Assembly: GCA_002502175.1 (NCBI GenBank) | Contig: DAPQ01000060.1 | Span: 7,784-71,783, forward strand | Direction of reading: 5' to 3' | From: Euryarchaeota archaeon UBA19 | Lineage (GTDB): Archaea; Thermoplasmatota; Poseidoniia; Poseidoniales; Thalassarchaeaceae | Length of the DNA stretch: 64,000 nt | Part shown: one piece after another, positions 25,617 through 62,087 of the stretch | How the letters are laid out: each line of letters opens with the position of its first letter | Position numbering within the stretch: the stretch's first letter is position 1 | Position numbers and translations under genes: made by a program | The notes under the pieces: generated by a model | Told to the model about the DNA's origin: nothing | Databases searched by the model: none | The model's input: the letters and a program-made list of their open reading frames with translations, nothing else

Positions 25617-26024
25617 ATGGCGAAGCCTACTAGGTCCGAACCCAAATGGATCGAGATGCCTAGTTTACCTTCTCAGTCTCGCGACTTTTCGTTAGATCCA
25701 GGTCAAGATTACCATGACTTGGGTGAGCTATACGCAGATGCGCCAGTGGCTAGAGGAATGGGCGATGTTATTGTTCACAGAGCCATTTTAGATGATATTA
25801 CAGGAATTCCTAAACTACTAGATTGGTTATCCGATGGTGATATCGTAATATTAGAAATGTCGCGCTTAATCACAGTTGAAACCGAATTAAGAATTGCAGT
25901 AGATAGAATCCAATCTTTTGTAGAAACCGACTTATCAGGAGAAGTGATTAGATTGGGCACCTCAAGATTGTTACTCTTACCATCAACATTTGCTATATCC
26001 GAGGAGCAAAATACTGCTTACTGA
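25617..26024 (+). CDS. sepF: SepF-like cell-division protein
   Basis: C-terminal core 'VIVHRAILDDITGIPKLLDWLSDGDIVILEMSRL...IRLGTSRLLLLP' follows the SepF/DUF552 pattern (VxV..P.sfeD ... ViVNL ... FLLxP). Confidence 0.45.
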   Translation: MAKPTRSEPKWIEMPSLPSQSRDFSLDPGQDYHDLGELYADAPVARGMGDVIVHRAILDDITGIPKLLDWLSDGDIVILEMSRLITVETELRIAVDRIQSFVETDLSGEVIRLGTSRLLLLPSTFAISEEQNTAY

Positions 26025-37554: not shown

Positions 37555-38508
37555 TCACTCTTGCAGACGGGAAATCAAATCTGCTTTCTTTCCTGAGACT
37601 GGTTTTCCAGCCTCCTTTAGAAGTCCCTTTAGTTCAGAAACCGTCATTGTTTCGTAATCAATCTCAGAGACATCGGATGATTCAGTATCCTCCTCTTGGG
37701 AATCTTCAGCGCCTTCCTCTTCCACTTCCTCAGATGCTTCTTCTGGCTCTTCATCTGAATCAGCCTCTCCAACCTCAGAAAGATCTGCAGATGCTTCTGC
37801 TGCTGCTAAAACATCGACTTCCTCTACTTCAGCGGCTGCAGCAGCGGCCTTCTCCTCAGCATGTATTTCATCCAAGGTAGGACCATCTTCTACGACTACT
37901 CCGCTTTGTAATAACTGACTGCGTCTAATCATAACGGTTCTGACGGGAGTGACCTTGGAAACCGATTCTTTGATTGCTGCTTCCATCGTACCATCGAGTA
38001 GCGCTTTTTGCAATTGAATCCAAGTTGAACTAGCACCCATAGTCAGGATTGTTTCTCTAGCACTAGCCCTCATTGCAGATTTTTGACTGGATTTTACACG
38101 AGATCTTGAAATTAGTAGAGGCTTGAATCTGACGTAATACCCATCATCGGTGACAACATCTACTGTGTCGTCAACCTTTCCACGATGACGGCGGATTTGG
38201 CGGCGAATGTGGTCTTTTAGCACGTTGTGTCCGACAAATTCAGTAAGCGCATCTCCACCGACAGATTCTGTTATTCGGAAAACTACCTGAACGTGCATCT
38301 TCGAAAAGTCGCCATCTAACTCATTTTGCATGATGTCGTATGTTCGACCAATTAGTTGTTCGGAGTCCTCTGCGAGGGTCTCTCCAATGACTCTGAATGA
38401 CCAAGGATTACGAGGTGCTCGAATTGTGAACCAGCGCTTTGCCTTCCACTTGTCTCTCTGCTTGCGTGCCGCTGCCCTTGCTTTTGCGCCCTTTGCCATG
38501 AGAAACAC
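37555..38508 (-). CDS. rps3ae: 30S ribosomal protein S3Ae (eS1) fused to acidic tract and C-terminal SAP domain
   Basis: N-terminus 'KQRDKWKAKRWFTIRAPRNPWSF...IGRT' is S3Ae. Then a ~75-aa Glu/Asp/Ala-rich tract. The terminal 'MTVSELKGLLKEAGKPVSGKKADLISRLQE' fits the SAP consensus. The likely true start is the 4th codon (MAKGAK). Confidence 0.75.
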   Translation of the reverse strand: MFLMAKGAKARAAARKQRDKWKAKRWFTIRAPRNPWSFRVIGETLAEDSEQLIGRTYDIMQNELDGDFSKMHVQVVFRITESVGGDALTEFVGHNVLKDHIRRQIRRHRGKVDDTVDVVTDDGYYVRFKPLLISRSRVKSSQKSAMRASARETILTMGASSTWIQLQKALLDGTMEAAIKESVSKVTPVRTVMIRRSQLLQSGVVVEDGPTLDEIHAEEKAAAAAAEVEEVDVLAAAEASADLSEVGEADSDEEPEEASEEVEEEGAEDSQEEDTESSDVSEIDYETMTVSELKGLLKEAGKPVSGKKADLISRLQE

Positions 38509-40472: not shown

Positions 40473-41492
40473 TCACAATTTTCCACGAGTTGTCCCTAAT
40501 TTTCGTTTCTTGGACTTTCTCGGCTTTGACGCCCGGGGTTCTGACTCTTCTTCAATTCCTGTACCGCCGAGAGTCAAAGAGCCACTTTCTAGTAACATCT
40601 CTTCTAATGACCCAGCTAGTTCTTCACTTTCGGATGGCGATCTAATAGCGTCTCTAACTGATTGATTGTGGTCTCGTATAGTCTTCTCACGTTCTTCTCG
40701 AGCGGCTTTTATTGAGTCACGGATTTCATTGACTTGGTCAAGCAGTGCTTTCATTTCAGTATGGACTTCATCAGCCGCTGCTTTTGCTTCAACAAATACG
40801 TTGTGAAGCCTATCACCCTCAGCCCTTAGGAAGTCTCTTTCCTCAAATAGTGGCTTAATTTCCTCCCATATTTCATCACCTTGCTTATGGCAATCTACCA
40901 TTGCTTGGTGTTCTGAATCAGCCTCTGCTTTTAGACGATTAATCGATTCATCCATGTCGCCAAGATCTATTGTAATAGACTCATGTTCCTTTACCGCGGG
41001 AAGTAATTCATTTCTCTTACCAATGAGTTTCTTTAGTTCCTTCAGGAGTTTATTTTCATCTTCCAATTTCAGTCTGCCATCAGTTTCTAAACGCCTCTCA
41101 ATCTTGTCAATTTGCCCTTCGGTTTCTGACAATTCAATAACTACTGATTTAGAACCTCTTTCGTCATCCCTACGACCACGTTTTTTCGAAATTATCTCTC
41201 TGATATGACCCTGGATTTCGTCTCTTCTAGCCTTGTGAATTCTTGCCTGGTCTCTAATTTCTTTTTGTTTAGCCTTCATTTCGTCAATAGATTCGCGTAA
41301 ACCTTTGGCTTGTTCTTGAACAGCATTCCGCGAATCGGCTGCTCTACGAGCGTTCTCATTGTGACTATTGCGATTATCTCGCATACGCCTTACTTTGGTC
41401 TCCATAGCGTGTAGGCGACTCCTGAGGTCATCGTCAGGGTTGGTAGTCTCGTCAGACACGGCCACGCCACGAGCGTTTGCCTCTTGAATCAA
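40473..41492 (-). CDS. charged coiled-coil protein (paralog family with 45628/46611/47643 ORFs), basic C-terminal tail
   Basis: Heptad-rich, KR/ED-rich. Shared central block 'IERRLETDGRLKLEDENKLLKELKKLIG' (cf. 'TSALDHKAEKKMIERRKKLI', 'GRFLGKKEKEFVAKMKKLHQEL'). C-terminus 'KPRKSKKRKLGTTRGKL'. Confidence 0.4.
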   Translation of the reverse strand: MIQEANARGVAVSDETTNPDDDLRSRLHAMETKVRRMRDNRNSHNENARRAADSRNAVQEQAKGLRESIDEMKAKQKEIRDQARIHKARRDEIQGHIREIISKKRGRRDDERGSKSVVIELSETEGQIDKIERRLETDGRLKLEDENKLLKELKKLIGKRNELLPAVKEHESITIDLGDMDESINRLKAEADSEHQAMVDCHKQGDEIWEEIKPLFEERDFLRAEGDRLHNVFVEAKAAADEVHTEMKALLDQVNEIRDSIKAAREEREKTIRDHNQSVRDAIRSPSESEELAGSLEEMLLESGSLTLGGTGIEEESEPRASKPRKSKKRKLGTTRGKL

Positions 41493-41504
41493 CCCGATGT
41501 ATGG

Positions 41505-43091
41505 TCAGAGGCCTAGAACTGAACCAATGAATGGTAGAAGCGGTGATAGAATTGCAATAATAGCACCAAGGATAAACAATGCTCCTGTTGTCATTCTAAG
41601 TCTAGTAAAGAGGTCGTTGCGAATCTGAACCGTTAGCACACGACCAGATATTAGATTGCCATCCAAATCCTCTAGACGAATTGTAACAGTAGACTCACCA
41701 GTGCTAGATGGTAACAAACTCTGCCAAATAATTCTAGTAGAGTTTAGGAGGTTTGGAAGTGTGTCGGTGATTTTCGGAGAAAGTATTCCATCGAAAGAAA
41801 TCGATTTATGAGGCTCCACCTTAAGTCGATATTCACAATCATTTGGTCTAAAATCAGGGGTTTGAACCCTTAGTATGAGGTCTTGTATTTCATCGGTTTG
41901 ATTGAGAATGAACGCGAATAAATTCGCAGGGCCAACAACTAAGTTTTCCATATCCACATCAAACCATACATCACCAGATTTTCCGTTCTGATGCCTCATG
42001 TGTAAACGATCGTGAAGGCGGAAAAATGGTGCGCAATCAAGCATTGCTCTCGATAATAATCGGTCCCAGGTTTCTTGACCTAATTCGGGATGCTCAAATA
42101 AGCCATCAATCGAATCGGAGTCAATCATTGATGCCAGTGCAAGTCTAAATTGATTCTCATCTATCACAGATCTCCTCCTAAGATGCAATAAATGTAGCAA
42201 TGTCTCTTGCAGTTCTGTCATAGATTTACCAGGTTTAATTTCAGATTCAACTGTACGCAAATATTCGGATATCCTAACAGCCAATAGTGGATCGATATGG
42301 GCTTTAATTACGTCAGAAAACGGATATCGGAGTAAAGCGGGATGGATAGGTGGGGAGAAGGCGCTCAACATCCCCCATGGCTCATTAGCATTGAAGCGTG
42401 ATTTATTTGATACCAAAAAGGTCCCATGACCAGCTAATAAAGTCCCTGTAGAAAGCGCAACTAACCTTGGAGAAAGGTCTCCGTCGGGTGCCAACCAAAG
42501 GGCGATTCCAAGAAATAGGATTGCTAGAAGAAGGAAACTTATCGTGGCCCCTAACTGCCTTCTTGAACCATTTATGGTCGCACGCATTTCTGCATATCCG
42601 TGGGAGCTTTTGAACGTCAATCCGGCAGTTGTCAAAGATTCAGCCTCATACTGAAAAATCCTCCTAGTTACTGTCAACAACCGGAATAATAAGAGTAAGA
42701 GAGCAATATTTGCAACTAAAATGAATAATGAAAGGAAATGGATTCCAAGGTGCATCTCAACAGGAGCGACTTCTTGCATATGGTCCACCCACCATTCTGG
42801 CGTGGTATTTCTGTAAGAATGAGCAAGGCCGAAATTCACCACTACAATCAATGGTAAGAAGAGGACAAATCGAACCCCCCCACTGATCAGAAGTCTGTCT
42901 ATTCGTAGTAGGGTTCTTTCTTGATTCCTTAAACTATCAACATTTGAAAACATTATTTTTTCAGAATTATCTCCCTCTACAACCTGAAATTGTTTCATAT
43001 TATCCTGCTGAGGCAATGACTCTTCCTCTAGAACTTTTGATGCTAATGAGCTCAGAGCATCTTCCAAATTTGGAATCTCTTCATCCTGCAA
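41505..43091 (-). CDS. large membrane protein, hypothetical (3 N-terminal TM + 1 C-terminal TM)
   Basis: Hydrophobic helices at residues ~70-230 and at the C-terminus 'ALFILGAIIAILSPLLPFIG'. ~250-aa soluble middle region. 3-nt gap to the upstream DtxR-like gene. Confidence 0.4.
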   Translation of the reverse strand: MQDEEIPNLEDALSSLASKVLEEESLPQQDNMKQFQVVEGDNSEKIMFSNVDSLRNQERTLLRIDRLLISGGVRFVLFLPLIVVVNFGLAHSYRNTTPEWWVDHMQEVAPVEMHLGIHFLSLFILVANIALLLLLFRLLTVTRRIFQYEAESLTTAGLTFKSSHGYAEMRATINGSRRQLGATISFLLLAILFLGIALWLAPDGDLSPRLVALSTGTLLAGHGTFLVSNKSRFNANEPWGMLSAFSPPIHPALLRYPFSDVIKAHIDPLLAVRISEYLRTVESEIKPGKSMTELQETLLHLLHLRRRSVIDENQFRLALASMIDSDSIDGLFEHPELGQETWDRLLSRAMLDCAPFFRLHDRLHMRHQNGKSGDVWFDVDMENLVVGPANLFAFILNQTDEIQDLILRVQTPDFRPNDCEYRLKVEPHKSISFDGILSPKITDTLPNLLNSTRIIWQSLLPSSTGESTVTIRLEDLDGNLISGRVLTVQIRNDLFTRLRMTTGALFILGAIIAILSPLLPFIGSVLGL

Positions 43092-43094
43092 GTT

Positions 43095-43745
43095 CTAGTC
43101 CTCCAATCTAACTAAAATACGCTTGGCCAAATCTTCGGAAAATAAGTATGGGGATCCTGAGACATATGTAGTGGAAAGTGTTTTGGTAACGTTGACGCCG
43201 ATGGAGATGTTTTGATTTTCTAGAGTTTTAATATCTTGGCCAGTTAGAGCGATTAATTCAACTACACCGCTACTGCCTTCCGGCATATTGGATATTGGCA
43301 ATAATGGGGATATTATGTCTGGTTCAAATTGCCTGGAAATTTGAGGGACTTTCTCACCCAGATGACTGTACTCTGGATAACCCAATAACTTGTCTAGAGA
43401 CGCCTCTAATTCATCATTAACCGCATGTTCCATTTCACACGCTATGGAATTAACATCTCCTTCAAATCCAATTACATCTGTTAGTAATAATTCAAGAAGT
43501 AATTGTCGTCGCTTAATCTTGCCAGCGATAGCAAACCCTTCTACTGTTAATCTTGAACCCTTGTAAGGAATATACGTCACCAAATCCCGGCCAGCAAGTC
43601 TTTGAATCATCTCCGTTGTTGAAGCATCACTGACTCCCATTATATCGGCTAACATTGAGGTTTTTACAATCGCAGCTGGTTGTTCAGAATGTATCTCAAA
43701 CATCTTCTTGAGATACATTTCCTCGAATTCGCTTAGTTCGTGCAT
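43095..43745 (-). CDS. DtxR/IdeR/MntR-family metal-dependent transcriptional regulator with C-terminal FeoA/SH3-like domain
   Basis: wHTH then 'IKRRQLLLELLLTDVIGF' (cf. RHRLAERLLTDVIGL) then 'ACEMEHAVNDELE' (C-x-x-E-H metal site as in DtxR 'ACRWEHV'). C-terminal 'GSSGVVELIALTGQDIKTLENQNISIGVNV' is SH3-like. Confidence 0.65.
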   Translation of the reverse strand: MHELSEFEEMYLKKMFEIHSEQPAAIVKTSMLADIMGVSDASTTEMIQRLAGRDLVTYIPYKGSRLTVEGFAIAGKIKRRQLLLELLLTDVIGFEGDVNSIACEMEHAVNDELEASLDKLLGYPEYSHLGEKVPQISRQFEPDIISPLLPISNMPEGSSGVVELIALTGQDIKTLENQNISIGVNVTKTLSTTYVSGSPYLFSEDLAKRILVRLED

Positions 43746-43758
43746 GAAAAAACCTCAG

Positions 43759-45651
43759 TTATGGTTCTCCAACCTCTGCTAGGAATTCACAGCGGCAGGC
43801 AGGACACCTAGCCTTTACTGGACGTCTGTTAATTGGGATTTTTAGAGTTTGATCGCAACTAGGGCAAGATAGCAAATCATCCACTGAGCGAGCGGATATC
43901 TCTTGAGGAGTTGAAGTGGAAGGTGAATCATTTTGGGTCGCAATGTTTTCTTCTTCTGAAATTTTGTCTTCATCTTCTGACTCGATCGATTCGACCATGA
44001 ATCGAGCGGTACAAGCAGGACATTTCACGGCACCAGAATGGCTGTTCGGAATGTGCAGACGTTGGTCGCATTCGGGACACGGTATCTCTCTTTTTTCTAC
44101 TGCTGCAGACTTTTTCTTTTCCCCTCTGGCTTCTCTTAGTCGATTAAATCTTGATTTTCCTGTGTCCTCTACGCTTTCCGATACTGTTCGATATAGAACT
44201 AAAATGAACATTACAAGAACTAAACCTGTGACCGTTCCATAAATTGCGGCGACCAAATCAAATGGCAATTCTGCCTCTGCATTATTGTCGGAAAATGTTT
44301 CTATCTCCAAAAGAAGGCTTTCGGTAAGTCCACTAGTTACCCATATTATATGCACATCAACAACTTTTGAATCGGGCCACTGTTCGATGGTGAATTCACT
44401 GCTAAATGATTCACTTGGATTAATTGAAAAAGTTGGAATTGTGTCGAGTATCATGTTATCTGAATTTCGCACTACTCTTACCTCTCCTGCTAAAGTCGGA
44501 GTATTACCATTATTGGTTAAGGAGAACGGGATTTTTACACTTTCACCCACCACAGGAGCTGTGCTTACACCTTCAGAAGTAACCACAAGATCTAGTATAG
44601 GAGGAGTGAGTGTAGTCTGAATTTCAATTTCCTCTTCGGCCGTCCAAGTAACTGTATTTACTCGAATAATTAGTGCGTCTGCTGAAGGATTTCCTAGATC
44701 GAGGTTTAGTTGCCTTCGACCAGGATCCATGGTAATTAGGAAAAATTGTAAATTAGACTCAATAGTTTGATCGATTATTGCAACTTCGATTTCAACTTCC
44801 CTAGATCGGCCATCACTAAGGTAAAGAGAGAGTTCTGAACTTAGGCCATCTTCAAGATTCCAGTCCAAAGAATCAACTACTAACTGGATTGATTGAGGCT
44901 CTAAAACTTCAATCACAGTGGTACCGTTGAGTTCTCTTGCGACACCTCCATTGCTGGAATGAACCTTCCAATCTAGTTTGATTGAGCCTGAAGAAGAGGG
45001 TGAAAATGATGCGGAAACCTCCCTACTCGAACCGGGATTAATCAGTATGGCTTGGCCTTGAATAGGGTCTGACCCCTCAGGTGATATAACCAAACTAACA
45101 GATTCAGGATTCTGACCTTGATTATGGACCAATATTGAAGCGGTAAGTGAATCCCCAACATGGGCAGGCTCGCCAATAAGTGCTATTTCGGAGGAGCTAG
45201 CAGCAGTCAAGTTCAGAGGATTGGGTTCTACTAGTAAAGTAAGACTTTCACTCTGACCCGAAGAATCAATTCCGAAAATCAGATTCAAAACTCCTTCAGG
45301 CAGTGGACCGAATGAAATGTTGACTATCACAGTCGAATCTGAACCCTCAAGGAAACCAGTGAGTTCAGGAGTGGTTTGACCGTCCAATTCCATCACAAAC
45401 CACCACTCATCATGTCCAGCAGTAGTATCACTATTTGATACCTCGATGGATAATTGAATTCGGTCGCCTGCAAAAGCAGATGAATTCTCCGAAGGAAGGG
45501 ATGTTGAACCATCGATGATTGTATTATCCCAATCTGCTGAATTTTCTATACTGAATCTATCCTGGGCACTAACATTTAGCGAAATTAGGGTTACAAATAC
45601 AACAGAGGCTGTTATCACAAGCAAGTTGTGAGGACGAACGCCTGTATTCAT
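43759..45651 (-). CDS. surface protein: signal peptide, large extracellular Ig/CARDB-like region, single TM, cytoplasmic tail with two zinc ribbons
   Basis: Signal 'LVITASVVFVTLISLNVSA'. TM 'LVAAIYGTVTGLVLVMFILVLY'. Cytoplasmic 'CPECDQRLHIP...VKCPACTARF' and 'CPSCDQTLKIP...ARCPACRCEF'. Acidic linker between them. Confidence 0.45.
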   Translation of the reverse strand: MNTGVRPHNLLVITASVVFVTLISLNVSAQDRFSIENSADWDNTIIDGSTSLPSENSSAFAGDRIQLSIEVSNSDTTAGHDEWWFVMELDGQTTPELTGFLEGSDSTVIVNISFGPLPEGVLNLIFGIDSSGQSESLTLLVEPNPLNLTAASSSEIALIGEPAHVGDSLTASILVHNQGQNPESVSLVISPEGSDPIQGQAILINPGSSREVSASFSPSSSGSIKLDWKVHSSNGGVARELNGTTVIEVLEPQSIQLVVDSLDWNLEDGLSSELSLYLSDGRSREVEIEVAIIDQTIESNLQFFLITMDPGRRQLNLDLGNPSADALIIRVNTVTWTAEEEIEIQTTLTPPILDLVVTSEGVSTAPVVGESVKIPFSLTNNGNTPTLAGEVRVVRNSDNMILDTIPTFSINPSESFSSEFTIEQWPDSKVVDVHIIWVTSGLTESLLLEIETFSDNNAEAELPFDLVAAIYGTVTGLVLVMFILVLYRTVSESVEDTGKSRFNRLREARGEKKKSAAVEKREIPCPECDQRLHIPNSHSGAVKCPACTARFMVESIESEDEDKISEEENIATQNDSPSTSTPQEISARSVDDLLSCPSCDQTLKIPINRRPVKARCPACRCEFLAEVGEP

Positions 45652-46614
45652 TGTCTGACCCTCGGAGCGGGTCAGTGTATCAAGGAAACCCTAATTCAAG
45701 GTCACGTAGTGACCTTTATGATGGGCCCTAATTTCCGCCGTTTGCATATGGAGTCTGAAGGCCTGCTAGCGGTGACGCCTGACGAATTGGCGCAGGCTTT
45801 GTTAGATAGGAGGGTTTTGCTGAAGGAGCAATTACCCACTGTTATTCGTACACTCGAGGCCGAGGAACAGAACCTTGCTCCAAAGCTATCTCGTTCAGCA
45901 GATAAACACAAACAGGCAAATGAAATTGTTGCTAAGTTGAAAGTGGAACGCGACCAAGCACAAATCGCAGCCCGAAATCTGCTCCCGAAGGTAAAGGAAT
46001 ATCGGGATAAATTGGTGGAATCTGGTGGGATGGTAAACCTTGACCCAGATTGGAAAAAAGAAAAATTGTTTGAAGAATTGGATGAAATCGAAGAAAATAT
46101 CCAGACTTCGGCGTTAGATCACAAAGCTGAGAAAAAGATGATTGAACGTAGAAAAAAGTTGATTCAACAAAACGAAAAATGGCTCAAGGAAAGAAGAGAT
46201 TCAAACCCGGAAATGGCAGATTACATCGATTCTAGAAGAGAGATGTCTTACCAATTTACAATTGCCAACAAGGCTCATAGAAATATGATCAAAGCCGTGG
46301 AAAAGGCGCAACCGTTGCATGAGAAAAAAGTAGCGATGGAGGCAGAAATAAGAGACGTCAGAAGACAATTGGACAGAGCCAAAGAATTACTGTCTCAATC
46401 TGACCAAGCAATAGAACATTGGCAACGCCGATTAAAGGATGGGTATGGAGAATTAGGACTAGGATTCCCTGACCTCCTTAAAGACATGATTCAAGTCCAG
46501 GAGGGAGGAGACTCTAGTTTCGCTAAGAGGCACAAGAAAAACAAACAGAATTCAAAGAAAAATAGTGTTGAGAATGGGCGAATAAACTCCGATTCGAGGG
46601 GTGAGGAAGAATGA
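45628..46614 (+). CDS. charged coiled-coil protein (paralog family); probable start at 45721 or 45748
   Basis: Heptad-rich. Central block 'DWKKEKLFEELDEIEENIQTSALDHKAEKKMIERRKKLIQQNEKW'. Basic C-terminus 'KRHKKNKQNSKK'. Confidence 0.4.
   Translation: MRTNACIHCLTLGAGQCIKETLIQGHVVTFMMGPNFRRLHMESEGLLAVTPDELAQALLDRRVLLKEQLPTVIRTLEAEEQNLAPKLSRSADKHKQANEIVAKLKVERDQAQIAARNLLPKVKEYRDKLVESGGMVNLDPDWKKEKLFEELDEIEENIQTSALDHKAEKKMIERRKKLIQQNEKWLKERRDSNPEMADYIDSRREMSYQFTIANKAHRNMIKAVEKAQPLHEKKVAMEAEIRDVRRQLDRAKELLSQSDQAIEHWQRRLKDGYGELGLGFPDLLKDMIQVQEGGDSSFAKRHKKNKQNSKKNSVENGRINSDSRGEEE
45698..45716. promoter_or_regulatory. perfect 19-bp palindrome AAGGTCAC-GTA-GTGACCTT in divergent intergenic region (candidate metalloregulator operator)
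   Basis: Exact 8-bp inverted repeat with a 3-bp spacer. Lies between the minus-strand operon that encodes the DtxR-like regulator and the plus-strand coiled-coil genes. Confidence 0.4.
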
Positions 46615-47576
46615 GCGATGGTTTGTTCGATGATCTTGAGGAGCTACCTCATGATGAAATCGAAGAGAAGGTCAAACAATTAGACCGTGAATTACGCTCA
46701 TTAGATGAAGAATTCAACTCACTGCGTCAAGAACGAAGAAACCAAGTGGAAATTGTAAAATCGTTGAGAGGAGCATTCGATGGAATTCAAGAGGTGAATT
46801 CTGAGAGGCGAATGCTGTTGAGAGAATTTCATGAAATAAAGAAAAAGGCAGACAAGCATAGAGCATTACGAGATAGAGTCAACCTATCTATTCCGCCACC
46901 TGCTTCTGTATTAGAAGAATGGATGGCAGACACACACTCTAAGTTAACCACCATAGATAACGACCTTACAGCAGTCCCCACCATAAATAGGGAATTGGAT
47001 TCATTTCGACGATTTTTCGAATTACAAGCAGCTGTGGTACGTAAGCGTGAGGCAGAAGATGCTCATGCACAGTATGTAGTTCAAATTGAGGATTTACGAA
47101 AAGTTACATCTAAATTAGACGCAACAAAGAAGGCTGGCAAGGATGCCGCAGATTCAGCAACAGAAAATAATGAAGTTAATCCTGACAACATAACTCGTAG
47201 TGAAATTAGGAAAATGAGCAAGCGAATCAGCAGCATAGATAAGCGGTTAGACACGATTAAATCACAACGTAAGAAATTACGAAGGGAATCAGGTAGAGTC
47301 CGGTCATATCAGAAAATAACTTCAGGAAGAGGGAGAAAAATCCGTCTAACTGATGTAAAAGAGAGAGCAAGTAAAGGAGGTTCACTAAACGCCAATGAAT
47401 TATCTGCTTTACTAGATTCAGGCAGTTTGACAGGTATCACAAATGAAGCAAGCAAACCGGAGTCTACGAAATCAAACGCACCTAGGAAAGGTAGAACGGG
47501 AAAGAAAGGAATGCGAAGACTAGGTGTCACTAGAGGTGGACCAAGGAAGGGTAACTCCGCTAGTCGGAGGGAATGA
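46611..47576 (+). CDS. charged coiled-coil protein (paralog family), Arg/Lys-rich C-terminal tail
   Basis: 4-nt overlap with the upstream paralog. Heptad-rich. C-terminus 'PRKGRTGKKGMRRLGVTRGGPRKG'. Confidence 0.4.
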   Translation: MSDGLFDDLEELPHDEIEEKVKQLDRELRSLDEEFNSLRQERRNQVEIVKSLRGAFDGIQEVNSERRMLLREFHEIKKKADKHRALRDRVNLSIPPPASVLEEWMADTHSKLTTIDNDLTAVPTINRELDSFRRFFELQAAVVRKREAEDAHAQYVVQIEDLRKVTSKLDATKKAGKDAADSATENNEVNPDNITRSEIRKMSKRISSIDKRLDTIKSQRKKLRRESGRVRSYQKITSGRGRKIRLTDVKERASKGGSLNANELSALLDSGSLTGITNEASKPESTKSNAPRKGRTGKKGMRRLGVTRGGPRKGNSASRRE

Positions 47577-47642
47577 GGAAAAAAACACCTCAAATGAACT
47601 TATATGGTAAACTTAGGACGTTAATTCAAGGGGCATGATTGT

Positions 47643-48524
47643 ATGAAGATGGAAAGCGGGGAAATTCGCGGGATTCTTCAACCACTCTGTGACGATATTC
47701 AAGAACAGATATCCTACAATCGGGAAGAAAGGGACCAATGGAATTCGAAAGTCCGTAAATTACTCGACGAACGCAACGAGTTAAATCGGCAAGTTAAGGA
47801 ATTAATCACAGAGGTGCAGAATCAAAAATCTCTACGAGATGATGCAAACCAAACCGTTAGAGAATTAAAAGAAATAAGGGCTGAAAGGACTGAGGTACTA
47901 AGAGTAATTAGGACCGATTTTAGGGAGAAAATAGCCGAAAATGGCTCTCAAGAAGAAAGACAGGAGAAACACGATAAAACTCGCTCACCAGGAAGAATTA
48001 GAACAGAAATAGACCGTTTGGAAAAGCAATACAACGAAGGTCGGTTCCTTGGTAAAAAGGAAAAAGAGTTCGTCGCTAAAATGAAAAAGTTACATCAAGA
48101 ACTTAGAGAAGCTAAGGAAAAGAAATCCGATGGTGGAATAAGAGAATTAAAGATTCAACTTAGAGATGCTGAAAAGAAACAAGAAGACGCCCACAAGAAG
48201 GTGAAGCGGGCAGTAATAGGCGCTCAAGAAGCCCATGACTTGATGGCTGAATTATCGGAAGAGGTCGATAGATTACGAGAGAAGGCAAATTCAGCTCAGT
48301 CAGGAGTTACTCGGGCTAAAAGAGAAGCAGATTCTCTCCATGGAAGATACATTGTATCGTTGAGGTGTATACATTCCATGCAAGATTTACTCAAGGCTCT
48401 GGAAACTAGAGAAGGCGGTGTTACAGAGGACGACGAGCAAGTCGAAGTCGCTGATCTAATGACACGACTAATGTCTGGAGACACATTATCTACTGACGAA
48501 ATCATGGCGCTTCAGAGGAATTGA
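47643..48524 (+). CDS. charged coiled-coil protein (paralog family)
   Basis: Central block 'GRFLGKKEKEFVAKMKKLHQELREAKEKK' and heptad-rich flanks. 293 aa. Confidence 0.4.
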   Translation: MKMESGEIRGILQPLCDDIQEQISYNREERDQWNSKVRKLLDERNELNRQVKELITEVQNQKSLRDDANQTVRELKEIRAERTEVLRVIRTDFREKIAENGSQEERQEKHDKTRSPGRIRTEIDRLEKQYNEGRFLGKKEKEFVAKMKKLHQELREAKEKKSDGGIRELKIQLRDAEKKQEDAHKKVKRAVIGAQEAHDLMAELSEEVDRLREKANSAQSGVTRAKREADSLHGRYIVSLRCIHSMQDLLKALETREGGVTEDDEQVEVADLMTRLMSGDTLSTDEIMALQRN

Positions 48525-49455
48525 TTTCGTAAGTTCGACCATTCCTAGAATGAAGAAGCTCAATTCCACCCTCATGGTCAAGTAGCCAGCCCGGAATAGC
48601 AGAAGGAATTTCTTCTAGTATCGCCCCATCTGAATCAAATGACCACCTTTCTAACATAGTGCTTCTGACCGAACTTCCTTCAATGGCTTCTTCTTGTTTT
48701 TGTCTTCGGGACTCTAAAATCCCTACTAACATAACTCTCAAATCGGTATCTGTCAACCATTTATTTTCTTTGGCAATAATTAACCGTAGGTTTGGAGGGG
48801 TATTCAGAACTTGATCTGAATCATGGGCCTCCAAACGATTAGCCCATGGGTCTTCTAATACACTCCAATTACCCTCTTCCCTCTCTCCATCAGGACTGAC
48901 TAATGCACCATTTATGTTCCATATACGAGATTGTAGAAGTATTGGTTTAGCATCAACATATTCCATTCCTCTTTGTATACACCATTCATCAAGGTCAATT
49001 ATTGGAGGCAAAATGACTAACTTATTCGGAAGTTTTTCTTCAATAATTTCTTCAGTGATTTCTTCATTAGGGGTTATTTGAGGAATTTTGGCTTCTAAAT
49101 CTCCGCGTAAAACTGCTTCTCCAATCCAACGGCTTAAGACATCAGGATTCCAAAGTTCAATTTTCAATTTTGAAGACAATATTTCCTTAGCCTGGTCTTC
49201 AAATTCTCTCTCACTCAAAATCCAATGAGGGCCACTAGGAGCATCTACAAGCCATCTTTCAGCTTCCGCGACACTTACTGGAATAATCGCTTTAGGCACA
49301 TGCCAAACATGCACTGAAGAACCTGTATCCTCTTCTAATTCAGGAATTTTCTCAGCTACTCCAAGGCACCGGAAACCAACAGTTTCGACTAGATTACTAG
49401 CCTCGGATAATCTAACTCCGCGAAGATTGAGTAAATCCCCCACGGTATTATCCAT
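48502..49455 (-). CDS. hypothetical acidic protein in the position normally occupied by nusA downstream of rpl30e
   Basis: 317 aa with no KH (GxxG) motifs. Follows rpl30e on the same strand after an 85-nt gap. Confidence 0.35.
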   Translation of the reverse strand: MDNTVGDLLNLRGVRLSEASNLVETVGFRCLGVAEKIPELEEDTGSSVHVWHVPKAIIPVSVAEAERWLVDAPSGPHWILSEREFEDQAKEILSSKLKIELWNPDVLSRWIGEAVLRGDLEAKIPQITPNEEITEEIIEEKLPNKLVILPPIIDLDEWCIQRGMEYVDAKPILLQSRIWNINGALVSPDGEREEGNWSVLEDPWANRLEAHDSDQVLNTPPNLRLIIAKENKWLTDTDLRVMLVGILESRRQKQEEAIEGSSVRSTMLERWSFDSDGAILEEIPSAIPGWLLDHEGGIELLHSRNGRTYEINSSEAP

Positions 49456-49540: not shown

Positions 49541-49858
49541 TCAGAGGTTTGTACTCAGAGTTAGAAGGTCTGACTGACCTGGGTCTATAACACATAATGC
49601 ACTAACTGGGAATGGTTTGGCACAAGCCGCACCCAACTGCCTGTTTACCATCGTAACTCTATGAACTGGGATATCAGGATGGCTAGTTGTCAAACTGGAT
49701 ATGTAATCCTCCGGACAGTTTGCCGCCACCAATACCAATCTGGCATCTCCTTTATTGCATGCACTTGTCGTTTGGCGTTGGCCAAATAGTACATTTCCTG
49801 TGCTAATTCCTTGTTTTAGTTGTCTTGCTAGATCCATTAGAATTCCTCCTTCAAGCAT
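49541..49858 (-). CDS. rpl30e: 50S ribosomal protein L30e
   Basis: '[13 protein letters not shown]'-type motif ('[16 protein letters not shown]'). Position downstream of rpoA'' is canonical. Confidence 0.8.
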
Positions 49859-51431
49859 CTGCCTCTTCAGGTATGTAAAACAAATCTACACTACCTGTTC
49901 CAAGGGCTACTGGTTGACCAACGATAATATTCTCAGTTACACCTCTTAGGTGGTCTCTTTCACCAATTACACCAGCACGAAGTAAGTGGTTAACAGAGAC
50001 TTCGAACGCTGATCTTGCTAGAATACTGTGTTTCGTACCGCTAACTCCGTGTCGTCCAATCGCACGAACTTCACCTTCGCTAGTCATCACGTCAGCCACA
50101 GTGATTAGGTGCCTAGTGTCGACCTCCAAACCTGCCCCTTCAAGAGTATCTTTCATCTCATTGACGATTGCTTGCCTTGCCGCTTCAACTCCTAGATATT
50201 GGTAAATTTCATTGATATTGTTTGTGTAAGTTCTGCCTCTGTCTACACCTGCAAATTCACTGACCTTTGCTAGATTTGAGCCAATTGTGGCGATGTAATA
50301 CTCGCCGGTATCCTTGTTTGGACCCTGAACATTTGCTCGAATAATATCTGGCAATCCCTTTAATCTAAGTTTCTTGACTTTGTCCTCAAGTTGCAGTAAT
50401 GCGGTGTATGTTGGAGGATCATTTGCCAATGTTGCTAGATCATCTTCTTTGGTAACTCCAGGAATTACCTTGAGGACCTTAGGCTTGTCTTCATTATCAG
50501 CCTGAATGTATAGTCGAAGAGCTCTTTGCAGTTTATCTCTAACCTCAGCACCAGTCATTTTCTTCAAACGTAGGTTTGAGGCGTTTAAATCTAAATTAAG
50601 GTGCCTTTGAGCGACATCCACATCGATGGAAGCGATGTCTCTAGTCGTAGTTGTTTCAATTGAGGCCGCAATCGCTTGAACCTTCTTTTCATTGGTTCGC
50701 AGAGGCTTACCTTTGGAATCATTCTCATCGAGATAAACAAGCATTGTCGGTGTTTTTGGCACCTTCCTTGCATCAACAATTTCGATTACTCTCGGAAGAC
50801 CTTGGGTTACGTTAACCGTAGCTACACCAGCATAGTGGAAAGTACGCATTGTCATCTGAGTCCCAGGCTCTCCAATTGATTGAGCAGTGGTTATCCCTAC
50901 AGCCTCGTGTGGATCGACTCTTGACATTTCCATGCCGGATGCGGCACAAGTTACGACCTTGCGTGCTTCCGCTGCGGTAAGTTTCTTCTTTCCTCTAGAT
51001 AGCAAGCCATTGACTAAATCATTGATTGTCTTCGGTGTAATTCGAATGTTTTCCTTTGCGGCTGCGTCTGAAAGACTGGTGAACATTGGGTTCTCAATAT
51101 CTAAATCACGGTGGATTTGACGCATCTTGTCTTCCGAGTCATATTCTTGCAGAGGAAGAACGCTCTTCTTTCTGCGTCTTGTAGCAACACGGCGACGGAT
51201 CAAAGTCTTCTCCGCTGCCTTTTCCTTTTGAGCCGCTTTGGTAGAGCCTTGAATGACTTCAGATATATTCTGTGCCATTCCAGAATCGGTGGCGCAAATT
51301 TGTGCGATTTCTCCAGCGGTAAGCACCTTCACGTCATCCCACTTGCGGTCATCTGCAAGGCGATGTGCATATTCCTCTGCGATTCCAAGATCCATCAACT
51401 TCTTTTTGGTTGCACTCTTGACTACCATCAC
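49851..51431 (-). CDS. rpoA2: DNA-directed RNA polymerase subunit A'' with ~110-aa N-terminal (HhH)2-like extension plus Arg-rich linker
   Basis: A'' core blocks '[25 protein letters not shown]', '[10 protein letters not shown]'. The N-terminus '[26 protein letters not shown]...' is paralogous to the RpoH N-terminus. Linker '[14 protein letters not shown]'. Confidence 0.85.
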
Positions 51432-58221: not shown

Positions 58222-58809
58222 TCAAGCACTCTCCACGATTAGTCTGAATGCGGTACTTGAACCGGCAACTCGGCTATATCGAACTACTCGCACTACTCTG
58301 TTTGCAAGCCATCCAGCAGGTAAATCATCTATCTCCGACTCTACCTTTTCTTTGATAGCTTGAACGGCAGGGTCGGTAATTAGAAGCTTAGGCAATAATT
58401 CCTTTGCAATCCTAATTCCGCCTTCATTGTCAGGAACTTCTAAACCCCAATGAGACAATACTGCGGACTCTTCTTCTTGTGAGACCAATTCATGGTGAGG
58501 AACTAATATGTGATTTAGGACATTAAAGCGATCGTCACCCTGAGGGATGTCGTCTAGTTCCAATGCCTTTCTTGAAATTGTAATTCTGCCGGAACGACTG
58601 CGTCGACGAGAGGTGTTGTGCTCTCTGATAATGGACATGATATTCTCGAGTGTTGCATCGCTCATCGCTACTCCAGTCTTTTCGGAAACTTCCTCAACCG
58701 TCATTCGCTTGATTGCATCCATGTTTGCGTCGTCAGCGAGTTTGTGGGCATGTTCTGCATCTATGCCCAACTCGATTAGACGCTTTTTTGTAGAACTCTT
58801 AACTGCCAT
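58222..58809 (-). CDS. rpoH: DNA-directed RNA polymerase subunit H with ~100-aa N-terminal (HhH)2-like extension
   Basis: C-terminal '[15 protein letters not shown]...[14 protein letters not shown]...[22 protein letters not shown]' is RpoH/Rpb5-C. The N-terminal '[26 protein letters not shown]...' is paralogous to the RpoA'' N-terminus. Confidence 0.8.
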
Positions 58810-60465: not shown

Positions 60466-60847
60466 GTGGTCTTGGAAGCCCCATACGTTCTCTAACCAAC
60501 CTAATCTTTCCGGAAGTAGTCAAAGATTCTATTTCTGGGTTTGAATGCAATTTTCGCCTAGCGGATTCTTTGTTTTCAAGATTTAACCTAATTATCGCCA
60601 ATGTATCTGATTGGGACGACAAACAATCGAGTAATCGGAAATTAATGTCCGGTAAATTTTGTTCAATAATTTTGCCTACAGAATTTCGAGATAACTCACC
60701 TTTGTTTATTCGTAAACCCATCCAACGATGTTTGCCACGGGAGGCTTTGCTCTGCCGAGCCATGCTTCGGCGAGTAGGTCGATGCTTAACGAGTTCCCGC
60801 TTGATTGAACTTAGAAAATTACGTCGGTTACAATTACGAAAGGCCAC
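60455..60847 (-). CDS. basic hypothetical protein (weak Rpp29/Sm-fold-like resemblance)
   Basis: 130-aa, highly basic N-terminus. 'SGKIRLVRERMGLPRP' resembles the Rpp29 C-terminal 'GERLVGRPEMR'; the match is weak. Overlaps the upstream FtsZ-like gene start by 14 nt. Confidence 0.25.
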   Translation of the reverse strand: MAFRNCNRRNFLSSIKRELVKHRPTRRSMARQSKASRGKHRWMGLRINKGELSRNSVGKIIEQNLPDINFRLLDCLSSQSDTLAIIRLNLENKESARRKLHSNPEIESLTTSGKIRLVRERMGLPRPPRK

Positions 60848-61751
60848 TAACTACTGCAACTAATCGTAACCTACCCACCATTTCATCGCTAGCTCTTGCT
60901 CCTAAAATCACCTGACAATCAGGGTGTAGAGAACTGACTAATGATTCGCTTAATTGATTTAGATGATGCAAAGTCATGTCCGGTCCACCTTCAACTTGGA
61001 TCAAACAACCCTTTGCTCCTGACACATCTACTTCAGTTAGCGGAGAACGTCTAGCTAACTCTACAACCTGCAAAGGATCTACAACACTGCCTGTCCCCAC
61101 AATTAAAGTGGCTCCACCTTGGTGTTCTACTACTGTTCGAAGATCCATTAAGTCAAGATTGAGTTTTCCTACTTTGGCCAAAGTTGTAACAAGGCCTTCG
61201 ACTAAATCTTGGATCCAACCAGAGCCGGATTGCCAATCCTCATCTCTTGCCCTTGCATACCATGCAAGTCTTTCCATACTGACGCGTATACAGACATGGG
61301 ATTGCCCCTCTAGAGCAGGTAAAGCCGTGTTTGCGATAGAGCTTCGAAGAGGTTGCTCAGCAAATGGCAGACCAGCTATAGACATCACAATACAATTCCT
61401 TGCGCGTGCGATTCTTGCAAGTTCACTTGCGGCCCCAGAACCTGTACCCCCGCCTAAACCAGTCATTATGAACAATAATTCTGCTTTGTCCAATAATGAT
61501 TCGATAGCTCCGAGGCCCTCACTCAATCGATGTGCTGCAAGGTTAGGGAGAGCTGCCGCTCCACTTCCATCACCTATTGCGTCTAGGTGTAGGCAATGCG
61601 CTTGACCTGAGCCCCTAAACGAGGCTTCATCAGCATCTATCAATAGAAGATCGGATAGGTCAGCACACTGTTGGTGGGCTGCTACAGCCCAGGCACAACC
61701 AAGGCCACCGACTCCAGCGATGAGTATCGCGCCCTCGTGCATATATGCCAT
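60834..61751 (-). CDS. short FtsZ/tubulin-superfamily GTPase (no C-terminal linker/tail)
   Basis: T1 'ILIAGVGGLGCAWAV', T4 signature 'GGGTGSGAA', T7 'NLDLMDLRTV'. 305 aa. Confidence 0.6.
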   Translation of the reverse strand: MAYMHEGAILIAGVGGLGCAWAVAAHQQCADLSDLLLIDADEASFRGSGQAHCLHLDAIGDGSGAAALPNLAAHRLSEGLGAIESLLDKAELLFIMTGLGGGTGSGAASELARIARARNCIVMSIAGLPFAEQPLRSSIANTALPALEGQSHVCIRVSMERLAWYARARDEDWQSGSGWIQDLVEGLVTTLAKVGKLNLDLMDLRTVVEHQGGATLIVGTGSVVDPLQVVELARRSPLTEVDVSGAKGCLIQVEGGPDMTLHHLNQLSESLVSSLHPDCQVILGARASDEMVGRLRLVAVVSGLS

Positions 61752-61781: not shown

Positions 61782-62087
61782 TCAATCGTAGGTAAGATAA
61801 CGACGATATCGTCTTCTTTCATCCCTTGCCCAAGCATTGTCTGGTTCTATCTCAAGAACCATGTCGTAGTATTCAACAGCCTTTTCAAACTCTGAAAGAT
61901 ACCTTCCATTCATGTGGGCTAGATTATTTAGGACTGGTACGCAGTTTGGTTCTTCTTCTAACATTCGAAGAAGAATCTTTTCTGCCTCCGAAATATCCAA
62001 CCTTTCCATCTTCTCTTCAGCCTCGTCTAGAGATGAAATTTGCTCATCGCTGAGGCGGTAAATATTCTTCCAAACAGGCCCCGCCAT
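61782..62087 (-). CDS. small TPR-repeat protein
   Basis: 'VPVLNNLAHMNGRYLSEFEKAVEYYDMVLEIEPDNAWA' is a TPR-like helix pair. Immediately upstream of the FtsZ-like gene on the same strand. Confidence 0.45.
   Translation of the reverse strand: MAGPVWKNIYRLSDEQISSLDEAEEKMERLDISEAEKILLRMLEEEPNCVPVLNNLAHMNGRYLSEFEKAVEYYDMVLEIEPDNAWARDERRRYRRYLTYD

Follow-up and report, generated by a model that had tools for sequence, protein, structure and literature searches.

A conserved Poseidoniales gene block with DUF7121 coiled-coil proteins, a DtxR-family regulator and a candidate shared operator

Genes and proteins of the block

The window is the whole 64-kb stretch of DNA analysed here, and it comes from a Marine Group II (MGII, Poseidoniales) archaeon. 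Between pdxS and rpl30e it holds eight genes, which we call A to H. All eight had been proposed in the first-pass annotation, and they lie where it placed them, apart from the start of E. The features are as follows.

40473-41492, minus strand: gene A, 339 aa, last gene of the D-C-B-A operon
41505-43091, minus strand: gene B, 528 aa, MGII-specific membrane protein
43095-43745, minus strand: gene C, 216 aa, DtxR-family metalloregulator
43759-45651, minus strand: gene D, 630 aa, type-I membrane protein, first gene of the D-C-B-A operon
45677-45691, minus strand: conserved motif GGGTTTCCTTGATAC, 25-31 nt upstream of the D start, proposed BRE/TATA of D-C-B-A
45698-45716, no strand: inverted repeat AAGGTCAC-GTA-GTGACCTT, 8+3+8 in 19 bp, proposed operator of C
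45748-46614, plus strand: gene E, 288 aa, diverged DUF7121 paralogue, first gene of the E-F-G operon
46611-47576, plus strand: gene F, 321 aa, basic coiled-coil protein
47643-48524, plus strand: gene G, 293 aa, canonical DUF7121/COG1340 protein
48502-49455, minus strand: gene H, 317 aa, acidic MGII-specific protein

The gaps on the minus strand are 13 nt (D/C), 3 nt (C/B) and 12 nt (B/A), just as first reported. Such packing assigns C to the same transcription unit as D, B and A. On the plus strand the start of F overlaps the stop of E (ATGA). E almost certainly starts at ATG 45748 and not at GTG 45628 as first annotated, since every related locus keeps a start codon at this position and a TTTAT box is found about 31 nt ahead of it.

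A, E, F and G had been described as paralogous coiled-coil proteins, with COG1340 suggested as a family to compare. That guess was right. Pfam DUF7121 (PF23435, cut-off 29) matches G at 41.5 bits and A at 34.4 bits. The window copies of E and F have no match, and the E orthologues in two related loci (L001 and L002) carry the domain. When compared by hhalign with DUF7121 from outside MGII, G scores 100% (7e-41), A 98.8% (1e-16) and E 97% (1e-10), with reversed-sequence controls for coiled-coil bias at 0.8% or less. We assign A, E and G to DUF7121/COG1340, a widespread archaeal family, on these profile matches. F scores 64.5% (E 6e-5) over its C-terminal half, so the paralogy is solid for G, A and E but only moderate for F, which is probably a highly diverged member. 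An SMC/Rad50 kinship of the coils can be set aside, as the NCBIfam matches are far below cut-offs and reflect composition.

G is the orthologue of a single-copy gene of about 289 aa in other Thermoplasmata, and its family has 784 representative clusters at E<=1e-3. It looks like any other COG1340/DUF7121 protein, with a length of about 290 aa, RDxLN repeats, AQxxHxxM and ADxxH motifs and a C-terminal G(E/D)xLSTxELMxLQ. A and E are clear but diverged members. The family C-terminal motif G-E-K-L-S-T-E-D-L-x-x-L-Q-K-x-G is intact in G, which ends in it (SGDTLSTDE(I/L)MALQRN), and degenerate in E. It is altered but recognisable in F (GGSLNANELSALLDSGSL) and A (LEEMLLESGSL), where extensions follow it. 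Three of the four MGII paralogues differ from other DUF7121 proteins in having basic/acidic C-terminal extensions with conserved peptides of their own. The tail of A, ...GS(L/I)TLGG...K+R+LGTTRG+, is kept in all orthologues. F has a conserved GGSLxxxELxALLxSGxL followed by KKxxR+LGVTRGGxRKG, and its net charge is +16. Basic tails had been noted on two of the plus-strand proteins; E has one as well, with GGxSSFAR, then a basic stretch, then a final GEEE.

D has an N-terminal signal/anchor, a variable CARDB/Ig-like ectodomain (CARDB at 40.4 bits against a Pfam cut-off of 22.7), a TM helix at about 463-485 and a cytoplasmic tail. The tail carries two conserved MJ0042-like zinc ribbons, CPxC-x(n)-CPAC, in every MGII orthologue displayed (59 aligned), though zinc-ribbon Pfam models all stay below their cut-offs. 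The ectodomain and linker vary among orthologues; the ribbons do not. This bears out the earlier description of D as a surface protein with a double zinc ribbon. B begins with four TM helices, which are followed by a helical domain at about 255-370 and an Ig-like beta-sandwich at about 375-490, and it ends in a further TM helix. The positive-inside rule predicts that its soluble part is cytoplasmic. It has many invariant His/Asp/Cys residues, and it matched no Pfam or NCBIfam family and no transporter family or fold.

H is a different case. It follows rpl30e on the same strand after 85 nt, and it probably closes the RNA polymerase/L30e operon rather than belonging to the coiled-coil unit to which it was first assigned. 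It is the acidic protein without KH domains that had been described, and it has no Pfam or NCBIfam family. A divergent NusA, which would have two KH domains in about 140-190 aa, can be rejected here: there is no KH domain, and the AF2 model is endonuclease-like with an added beta domain. In that model the N-terminal domain is predicted to have a PD-(D/E)xK (restriction-endonuclease-like) fold with an alpha-beta-beta-beta-alpha-beta core, and the C-terminal domain is predicted to be beta-rich. The N-terminal domain superposes on AF1548, AspBHI and MspJI and more weakly on the N-terminal domain of eukaryotic Rpb5. The invariant residues of H include E35, E64, D71, H77, S81 and R83. Unlike in PD-(D/E)xK proteins, no canonical D...(D/E)xK is evident among them, and the third strand lacks a canonical (D/E)xK. 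H also differs from these proteins and from Rpb5 in its extra beta-rich domain, its lack of a sequence-level family and its restriction to MGII.

The regulator and the inverted repeat

C was first described as a DtxR-family protein with its metal site intact, and both points hold for the primary site. Its wHTH is followed by a dimerisation/metal domain, and about 75 aa extend the protein at the C-terminus. Pfam finds Fe_dep_repress (PF01325, 47.2 bits, cut-off 26) and Fe_dep_repr_C (PF02742, 56.1 bits, cut-off 27). The PDB matches at E<=1e-3 are 31 DtxR/IdeR/MntR/SloR/ScaR sequences, the best being 8pvt, 'iron dependent repressor', at 1e-17. The primary metal ligands Met10, Cys102, Glu105 and His106 (DtxR numbering) are present; in a BLASTP alignment to C. 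diphtheriae DtxR, M10, C103, E106 and H107 align. EEMYLK and C-x-x-E-H are kept in all MGII orthologues. In domain layout and primary ligands C resembles DtxR, IdeR and MntR, including the archaeal TroR, Idr, SirR (Haloferax/Halobacterium) and MDR1 (Archaeoglobus).

Unlike in these relatives, the ancillary site of C is degenerate. Position 79 is Gln (or Glu) and position 98 is Asn, Ser or variable, so His79 and His98 are lost and only Glu83 is kept. C also reaches no NCBIfam equivalog cut-off (DtxR; MntR of Thermococcales, E. coli and Bacillus), with its best score at 87.9 bits against 350 for NF047407. The Met/Cys/Glu/His primary site would favour Fe2+ as the metal, and Mn2+ could also serve.

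The inverted repeat lies between two predicted divergent promoters of leaderless type. It was first called a perfect 19-bp palindrome. The repeat is there, but its 8-nt arms AAGGTCAC and GTGACCTT flank a non-symmetric 3-nt centre, gta. On the E side it touches or overlaps the BRE/TATA predicted for E-F-G (TTTAT, 45715-45719, about 31 nt upstream of the E ATG). On the D side the conserved GGGTTTCMTTSATAC, itself 25-31 nt upstream of the D ATG, is 8 nt away, and the repeat sits immediately upstream of this proposed promoter motif. The motif GGGTTTCCTTGATAC is kept in all related loci, even those without the palindrome, and judged by its spacing it would be the promoter element of D-C-B-A.

The repeat has a single match in the window, where 0.24 would be expected by chance at up to 3 mismatches. 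Of 52 distinct intergenic sequences from related loci, 48 retain it with no more than 2 mismatches, even though the proteins have diverged to 30-60% identity. Column identity across related loci is 0.96 in the repeat and 0.55-0.75 in the flanks. In 1.2 Mb of related loci, all from this same region, 59 copies of it lie between D and E and 3 weak matches at other places, and no further copies were found there or in the window. Loci with the dyad hardly vary in the recognition helix of C, ASTTEMIQRL. The dyad is missing only where the Gln of this helix is replaced (by T, I or G, in three groups). The dyad behaves like an operator and covaries with the recognition helix, and we argue that it is most likely the operator of C.

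The site also looks right for the family. It is a dyad of about 19 bp with an AGGT-containing half-site, it lies in the promoter region of C itself, and C is encoded inside the operon presumably under its control. The classical DtxR box has a 9-1-9 spacing, whereas the half-sites here are spaced 8-3-8. Characterised DtxR-family factors of archaea recognise similar semi-palindromes in which the central spacer is short; one is the TroR site TTTAGGC-NNN-CCTAAA (PMC10783522), which also differs from the 8-3-8 layout.

Conservation within and beyond the Poseidoniales

All 84 related loci share the gene order rpoA''-L30e-H-(G,F,E)-D-C-B-A-pdxS, even where identity has fallen to 52% for B and 30% for H. 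The block forms a genuine unit kept across the Poseidoniales. Even in the MGII loci that have diverged most, orthologues of A, E, F and G are still about 45-60% identical to the window copies, a level that H and D fall well short of. It must be noted that 25 kb around the block, including pdxS and S3Ae, is collinear throughout MGII. Synteny within the order is therefore weak evidence and by itself does not prove a functional unit.

The block had been taken to stand in the place of nusA. No nusA was found in the window among 20 further ORFs scanned with Pfam, nor by a regex for the KH GxxG, which is not exhaustive and also missed the KH domain of FttA. There is no sign of a recent insertion. 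In tetranucleotide usage the block correlates with the whole window at 0.946 (mean 0.948), and its GC is unremarkable. Given this native composition and an arrangement fixed across the order, we reject horizontal transfer or an insertion in place of nusA.

The block was said to match no named system, and nothing we searched changes that: PADLOC, the PDB and the literature were all negative. The idea of an anti-phage defence system finds no support, since PADLOC gives only coiled-coil noise (LmuB and JetC coils, at most 25 bits) and no match at all for B, C, D, E or H. Literature searches on DUF7121, COG1340, DtxR in Poseidoniales or an iron-dependent repressor in Marine Group II returned nothing relevant.

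Outside MGII we examined the neighbourhoods of DUF7121 in the best 80 matches of a genome scan with alignment A6. All are Thermoplasmata or Methanomassiliicoccales, and MGIII and other phyla lie outside this sample. Most of the 80 have one DUF7121 gene and about 20 have two, in contrast to the four clustered paralogues of MGII. None of them has DtxR, B, D or H near DUF7121. The wiring of these paralogues to a DtxR-type regulator and membrane proteins sets MGII apart. What does recur is another kind of regulator. Of 73 Thermoplasmata loci, 32 have an ArsR-type wHTH no more than one gene away from DUF7121. This regulator is homologous to C in the wHTH only (hhalign 14.6%), which rejects a closer kinship.

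In 14 loci an operon of a triple-zinc-ribbon protein followed by a wHTH runs divergently from DUF7121, but these come from one related lineage and the enrichment is not an independent replicate. Such loci (L106-L160) recall D and C facing E, and they too have a second DUF7121 paralogue nearby. They differ in that their zinc-ribbon protein is a soluble one carrying three ribbons of DZR type, the regulator is of ArsR/HTH_20 type and unrelated to DtxR, and there is no B. They also have no CARDB ectodomain, except for two giant proteins with zinc ribbons, a TM segment and a CARDB-like region that adjoin DUF7121 (L087 and L146). The likeness to MGII is architectural only.

Possible roles of the block

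We argue that the block is a vertically inherited Poseidoniales unit in which C would control the divergon D-C-B-A/E-F-G, with a membrane-tethered coiled-coil scaffold as its possible cargo. We put the probability of this reading at about 0.5. The earlier suggestion of co-regulation is reasonable, with the repeat behaving like a functional operator common to both operons. In our scenario the two operons would run from back-to-back leaderless-type promoters split by the one dyad AAGGTCAC-N3-GTGACCTT. Metal-loaded C would bind it as a dimer. Bound C would occlude the BRE/TATA of E-F-G and repress that operon, and it would modulate its own operon from just upstream of the D-C-B-A BRE. When metal is scarce the module would be de-repressed. 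We speculate that the coiled-coil proteins gather on the cytoplasmic face of the membrane, anchored by the zinc-ribbon tail of D and the cytoplasmic helical/Ig-like domain of B. The C-terminal peptides of A and F (R+LG(T/V)TRG) could be docking or nucleic-acid-binding tails. We count the link of DUF7121 with zinc-ribbon proteins or regulators outside MGII in favour of this reading as a whole.

One can also imagine that the arrangement is only historical. C would then be a general iron/manganese regulator of MGII that autoregulates, and the DUF7121 paralogues would be housekeeping neighbours in a frozen, gene-dense region (RNAP, L30e, S3Ae, exosome, proteasome). Since copies of the dyad were scanned for within loci of this region, C may be a global regulator merely autoregulating here. 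The collinearity of the whole region fits this idea, as does the level of identity kept by A, E, F and G. The G-type orthologue of other Thermoplasmata lies in a housekeeping context (SRP54, RNA methyltransferase, adenylosuccinate lyase) without a DtxR. However, the 3-13-nt gaps tie C to D, B and A, and the dyad overlaps promoter elements of E-F-G and not those of C alone. Four paralogues of one family cluster around the regulator, and a wHTH regulator, in places with zinc-ribbon proteins, recurs beside DUF7121 in other lineages. We consider the historical explanation unlikely, though it must be taken seriously.

It is harder to argue that the targets of the coiled-coil proteins are nucleic acids or ribonucleoproteins (nucleoid, ribosome or SRP-linked) and not the envelope, with basic tails that bind DNA or RNA and a meaningful proximity to RNA polymerase. 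The tails of A and F are conserved and strongly basic, and the cluster adjoins RNAP/L30e and an S3Ae-SAP fusion. But A shares its operon with two membrane proteins, and Pfam and NCBIfam detect no nucleic-acid-binding domain in A, E, F or G. One DUF7121-like coil (P0490) is fused to a C-terminal KH domain that replaces the family motif, but this is a single, rare architecture within a STAND NTPase. In 46 of the 73 Thermoplasmata loci SRP54 is at most two genes away from DUF7121, which could equally mean membrane targeting. We find this role quite doubtful.

The reading with least in its favour makes D and B a surface or uptake device induced by metal starvation. DtxR-type repressors typically control metal-acquisition genes. 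The TroR regulon is in line with this (PMC10783522). The genes around C, unlike usual targets of the family, encode coiled-coil and membrane proteins and not metal transporters or storage proteins. The CARDB ectodomain of the surface protein D would bind a substrate or particle, B, with its invariant His/Asp/Cys, would be a channel or sensor, and the coiled coils would be accessory; yet this is very improbable, as B matches no transporter, its large conserved domain is predicted to be cytoplasmic, the four coiled-coil paralogues are left without a role, and DUF7121 is widespread in archaea without D and B.

Our preferred reading of a C-controlled divergon can be carried further. COG1340/DUF7121 proteins might be units of an unrecognised archaeal membrane-associated coiled-coil skeleton that docks on the zinc-ribbon tails of surface proteins. 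Poseidoniales would have elaborated it with four paralogues, two membrane anchors and an iron (or manganese) switch through a DtxR-type repressor. This is a long shot. If it were true, remodelling of the envelope or cell architecture would be tied to metal availability in abundant archaea of the surface ocean. Should iron prove to be the signal, iron sensing would have a new output in a dominant marine archaeal group. COG1340/DUF7121 is a widely conserved, uncharacterised archaeal family; a PDB search found no solved homologue and the literature is limited to a 2005 mention. Its context in Poseidoniales is unusually informative, with four paralogues locked to two membrane proteins and a metal-sensing repressor that has an identifiable candidate operator. 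Databases label members of the family 'uncharacterized coiled-coil DUF342 family protein', 'coiled-coil protein' or, wrongly, 'phosphoserine phosphatase'.

Layout and conservation of the block

The block between pdxS and rpl30e (40473-49455) is laid out as follows.

40473-41492, minus: A, coiled-coil protein
41505-43091, minus: B, multi-TM membrane protein
43095-43745, minus: C, DtxR-family regulator
43759-45651, minus: D, CARDB surface protein with a zinc-ribbon tail
45698-45716: dyad in the D/E intergenic region, AAGGTCAC-GTA-GTGACCTT (8+3+8)
45628-46614, plus: E, coiled-coil protein (longest ORF; ATG at 45748)
46611-47576, plus: F, coiled-coil protein
47643-48524, plus: G, coiled-coil protein
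48502-49455, minus: H, acidic protein
49541-49858: rpl30e (Pfam L7Ae/L30e)

The ORF coordinates of the first-pass annotation agreed exactly on re-examination. The minus-strand run D, C, B, A has successive gaps of 13, 3 and 12 nt, and the start codon of F overlaps the stop of E. G and H are convergent and have 23 nt in common; across their junction (48492-48534) is an inverted repeat of 13 nt (92% complementary, 17-nt loop), which may be a 3'-end element of both genes. The first-pass annotation had also raised a comparison of composition with the flanks, and the block does not stand out from them. Its GC content and tetranucleotide usage are indistinguishable from the remainder of the window; its tetranucleotide profile correlates with that of the window at 0.946, and sliding 9-kb segments average 0.948 (sd 0.021).

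Homologues of B, G and H originate from ocean metagenomes, and their named sources are Marine Group II (MGII, the Poseidoniales), Thalassarchaeaceae, Thermoplasmatota or Euryarchaeota MAGs. MGII loci were taken from an exact-protein look-up (4) and a metagenome scan with the B alignment (80), and were compared by tblastn of the window proteins. The D-C-B-A/E-F-G unit is fixed in Poseidoniales, because gene order and orientation agree in all loci of sufficient length: rpoA''-L30e-H-(G,F,E opposite strand)-D-C-B-A-(pdxS opposite)-...-S3Ae. This bears out the conserved neighbourhood on which the first-pass proposal depended. The order is constant even where identity drops to 52% for B, 31% for D and 30% for H. 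The surrounding ~25 kb is equally fixed in MGII, and therefore synteny within the order is by itself no evidence of a functional link. A live alternative is historical synteny, in which the genes simply lie around a metal regulator of global scope.

H lies 85 nt downstream of rpl30e. Its strand and spacing make it, on the simplest reading, the final gene of the RNA polymerase/L30e operon. Its homologues form 76 clusters, from MGII-type marine sequences only. In an AF2 model (pLDDT 79) the N-domain is PD-(D/E)xK-type, with a Foldseek match to MspJI (2e-4); a canonical catalytic motif is not evident among the invariant residues of H. Given this N-terminal domain, we rejected H as NusA. nusA was not found among the other window ORFs scanned.

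The regulator and the D/E control region

C matches Pfam PF01325 and PF02742, and its best PDB match is an 'iron dependent repressor' (1e-17). Aligned to C. diphtheriae DtxR, C retains the primary-site ligands Met10, Cys102, Glu105 and His106, as do all its orthologues; the ancillary-site histidines are not conserved. Met/Cys ligands are typical of the Fe-responsive DtxR/IdeR branch. C falls below every NCBIfam equivalog cut-off.

The first-pass annotation saw a perfect 19-bp palindrome between D and E, but the repeat consists of two 8-nt arms around GTA. Across 52 distinct loci the D-strand layout is constant: E start codon, ~25 nt, ATAAAGGTCACTAYGTGACCTT, ~8 nt, GGGTTTCMTTSATAC, 25-31 nt, D start codon. 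Seen from E, the right arm continues into TTTAT, ~31 nt upstream of the ATG at 45748, a spacing in keeping with an archaeal TATA box whose transcript is leaderless or nearly so. Given this position, the dyad would overlie the BRE of E-F-G and the edge of its TATA box. On the other side of the dyad, the proposed promoter motif of D lies a short way downstream. Column identity over 48 loci is 96% in the dyad and 55-75% in the flanks. The motif occurs once in the window, and 1.2 Mb of related loci hold 59 copies at the D/E site and 3 weak matches elsewhere.

Three groups are missing the dyad: L003, L076/L079 and L077. The recognition helix of C, ASTTEMIQRL, is otherwise essentially invariant, and its Gln becomes Thr, Ile or Gly in exactly these groups. 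In place of the AAGGTCAC dyad, L076/L079 have another palindrome, ACCATTAAAATGGT, which covers the E TATA box at the equivalent D/E position; the recognition helix of their C orthologue is altered as well, to EMLIRL. C is the obvious candidate to bind the dyad because of this covariation, the symmetry of the dyad and its position in the control region of C itself. We argue the best-supported statement, on these sequence comparisons, is that the block holds a putative divergon controlled by its resident DtxR-type repressor via a single conserved operator. The placement of that operator would block initiation at E-F-G. The site of the archaeal DtxR-family regulator TroR of Haloferax is a semi-palindrome, TTTAGGC-NNN-CCTAAA, and TroR acts both ways, repressing and activating targets (PMC10783522). 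The dyad at the C locus is a comparable semi-palindrome and has a 3-nt centre too.

The coiled-coil family inside and outside MGII

A and G pass the Pfam DUF7121 threshold. Profile-profile comparison of MGII orthologue alignments with 29 non-MGII family members gave probabilities of 100% for G, 98.8% for A, 97% for E and 64.5% for F (reversed-sequence controls <=0.8%). The first-pass guess of a COG1340-type family was therefore a good one for G, A and E, with F a probable member. A DUF7121 profile search of 1.84 billion representative proteins returned 784 clusters. Sources call them 'coiled-coil protein', 'uncharacterized coiled-coil DUF342 family protein' (the COG1340 product name) or 'phosphoserine phosphatase'. 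The last label on stand-alone DUF7121 proteins of NCBI MAGs is probably an annotation-transfer artefact, because SerB (the HAD phosphoserine phosphatase) is fused to DUF7121 in Methanocellales / Halobacteriota (P0447, P0492, P0493). The search of solved structures found none related to DUF7121.

G has all family motifs intact, including the C-terminal G(D/E)xLSTxELMxLQ. A and F end in a variable linker and then a conserved basic peptide, R+LG(T/V)TRG. The tail of E is GGxSSFAR, a basic stretch and GEEE. This acidic end is found in almost all E orthologues (window 46560-46614) and resembles a short docking motif. The window also codes for a small TPR protein (61782-62087). In the DUF7121 helical rods (alignments A4 and A5) invariant polar residues recur at i/i+3 (Q185-x-x-H188-x-x-M191, D220-x-x-H223), and E116, T121 and E129 are also invariant. 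These residues are kept in G and some are lost in A and F. The i/i+3 set is reminiscent, by analogy, of ExxH-type metal sites in helical bundles. DUF7121-like coiled coils are also embedded in two STAND/NACHT NTPases, P0490 of 1327 aa and P0414 of 1709 aa; the former has a KH domain at its C-terminus instead of the usual motif.

GTDB species genomes were scanned with a non-MGII DUF7121 alignment, and the best 80 matches were all in Thermoplasmata or Methanomassiliicoccales. Homologues of C, B, D, H, L30e and rpoA'' were near DUF7121 in 0 of these 80. The lack of C homologues there implies that the DtxR link is probably specific to MGII. Among the 73 of these loci with a called DUF7121 ORF, SRP54 is downstream within two genes in 46, an ArsR-type HTH_20 regulator is at most one gene away in 32, and a GvpD/KaiC-like ATPase is in the flank in 27. 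Fourteen loci of one lineage of Thermoplasmata encode a soluble three-zinc-ribbon protein and then an HTH_20 regulator on the strand opposite to DUF7121. This pair diverges from a 289-aa DUF7121 gene and converges on a second paralogue, which is shorter; D and C against E in MGII follow the same logic. The HTH_20 regulator is unrelated to C beyond the wHTH. ORFs with at least two zinc ribbons make up 14/306 within two genes of DUF7121 and 1/685 farther away, although these loci are phylogenetically related and do not make an independent test. In L087 and L146 a giant protein near DUF7121 joins a CARDB/DUF11-like ectodomain and a TM segment to zinc ribbons on the cytoplasmic side. It is suggestive that DUF7121 is accompanied across lineages by a dedicated wHTH regulator and, at some loci, by zinc-ribbon proteins.

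L106-L160, of this Thermoplasmata lineage, have a conserved element, CTTATAC..TGTCGAyCCrGTAATCAnCnnTGATAAC, which includes a near-palindrome, TAATCA-N4-TGATAA. The element lies ~80-100 nt ahead of the zinc-ribbon/HTH_20 operon, in the intergenic region before the triple-zinc-ribbon gene (in L152, for example, at about 6254-6400), and may serve this module as its operator or promoter.

Cargo of the proposed divergon and other genes in the window

D starts with a signal/anchor and a CARDB-type ectodomain (40 bits); a TM helix then leads into the cytoplasmic tail, which carries two Cys4 ribbons. Across the order its ribbons and last 30 residues are conserved, and its ectodomain and linker vary. 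We favour a membrane-tethered coiled-coil assembly as the role of the cargo, because a DUF7121 paralogue is operonically coupled with two membrane proteins, the cytoplasmic parts of both are conserved, A, E and F carry conserved terminal peptides, and zinc-ribbon proteins recur beside DUF7121 elsewhere. A nucleic-acid or RNP role of the coiled-coil proteins is also live, and the basic tails, the KH fusion and the SRP54 and RNAP neighbourhoods speak for it. So is a metal-starvation surface device. That the block represents a new archaeal system of the envelope or cytoskeleton is unlikely.

What is already known is the regulator family and the uncharacterised coiled-coil family; the remainder are lineage-specific proteins. 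We found no description of the gene combination, the fourfold paralogue expansion or the operator in the searchable literature. The block would be a metalloregulator-controlled divergon with unprecedented cargo, and it offers an uncommon experimental way into COG1340.

Other genes in the window deserve mention. RpoH (58222-58809, minus) is 195 aa long with the Rpb5_C domain only at residues 95-191. Its ~60-aa N-terminal extension is homologous to the N-terminus of RpoA'' (49851-51431, minus; 34% identity over 79 aa, E 5e-15), so two RNA polymerase subunits have an extra module in common. Neither extension matches a Pfam family, and the module is possibly HhH-like. S3Ae (37555-38508, minus) is extended by an acidic linker and, at the C-terminus, a SAP domain (Pfam 47 bits), a fusion conserved in the MGII loci with called genes listed (L001-L004). 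A short FtsZ of 305 aa (60834-61751, minus), a SepF-like protein whose weak match falls short of the Pfam cut-off (25617-26024, plus) and the termination factor FttA/aCPSF1 (22786-24702, minus) place cell-division and transcription-termination genes within 20 kb of the block.
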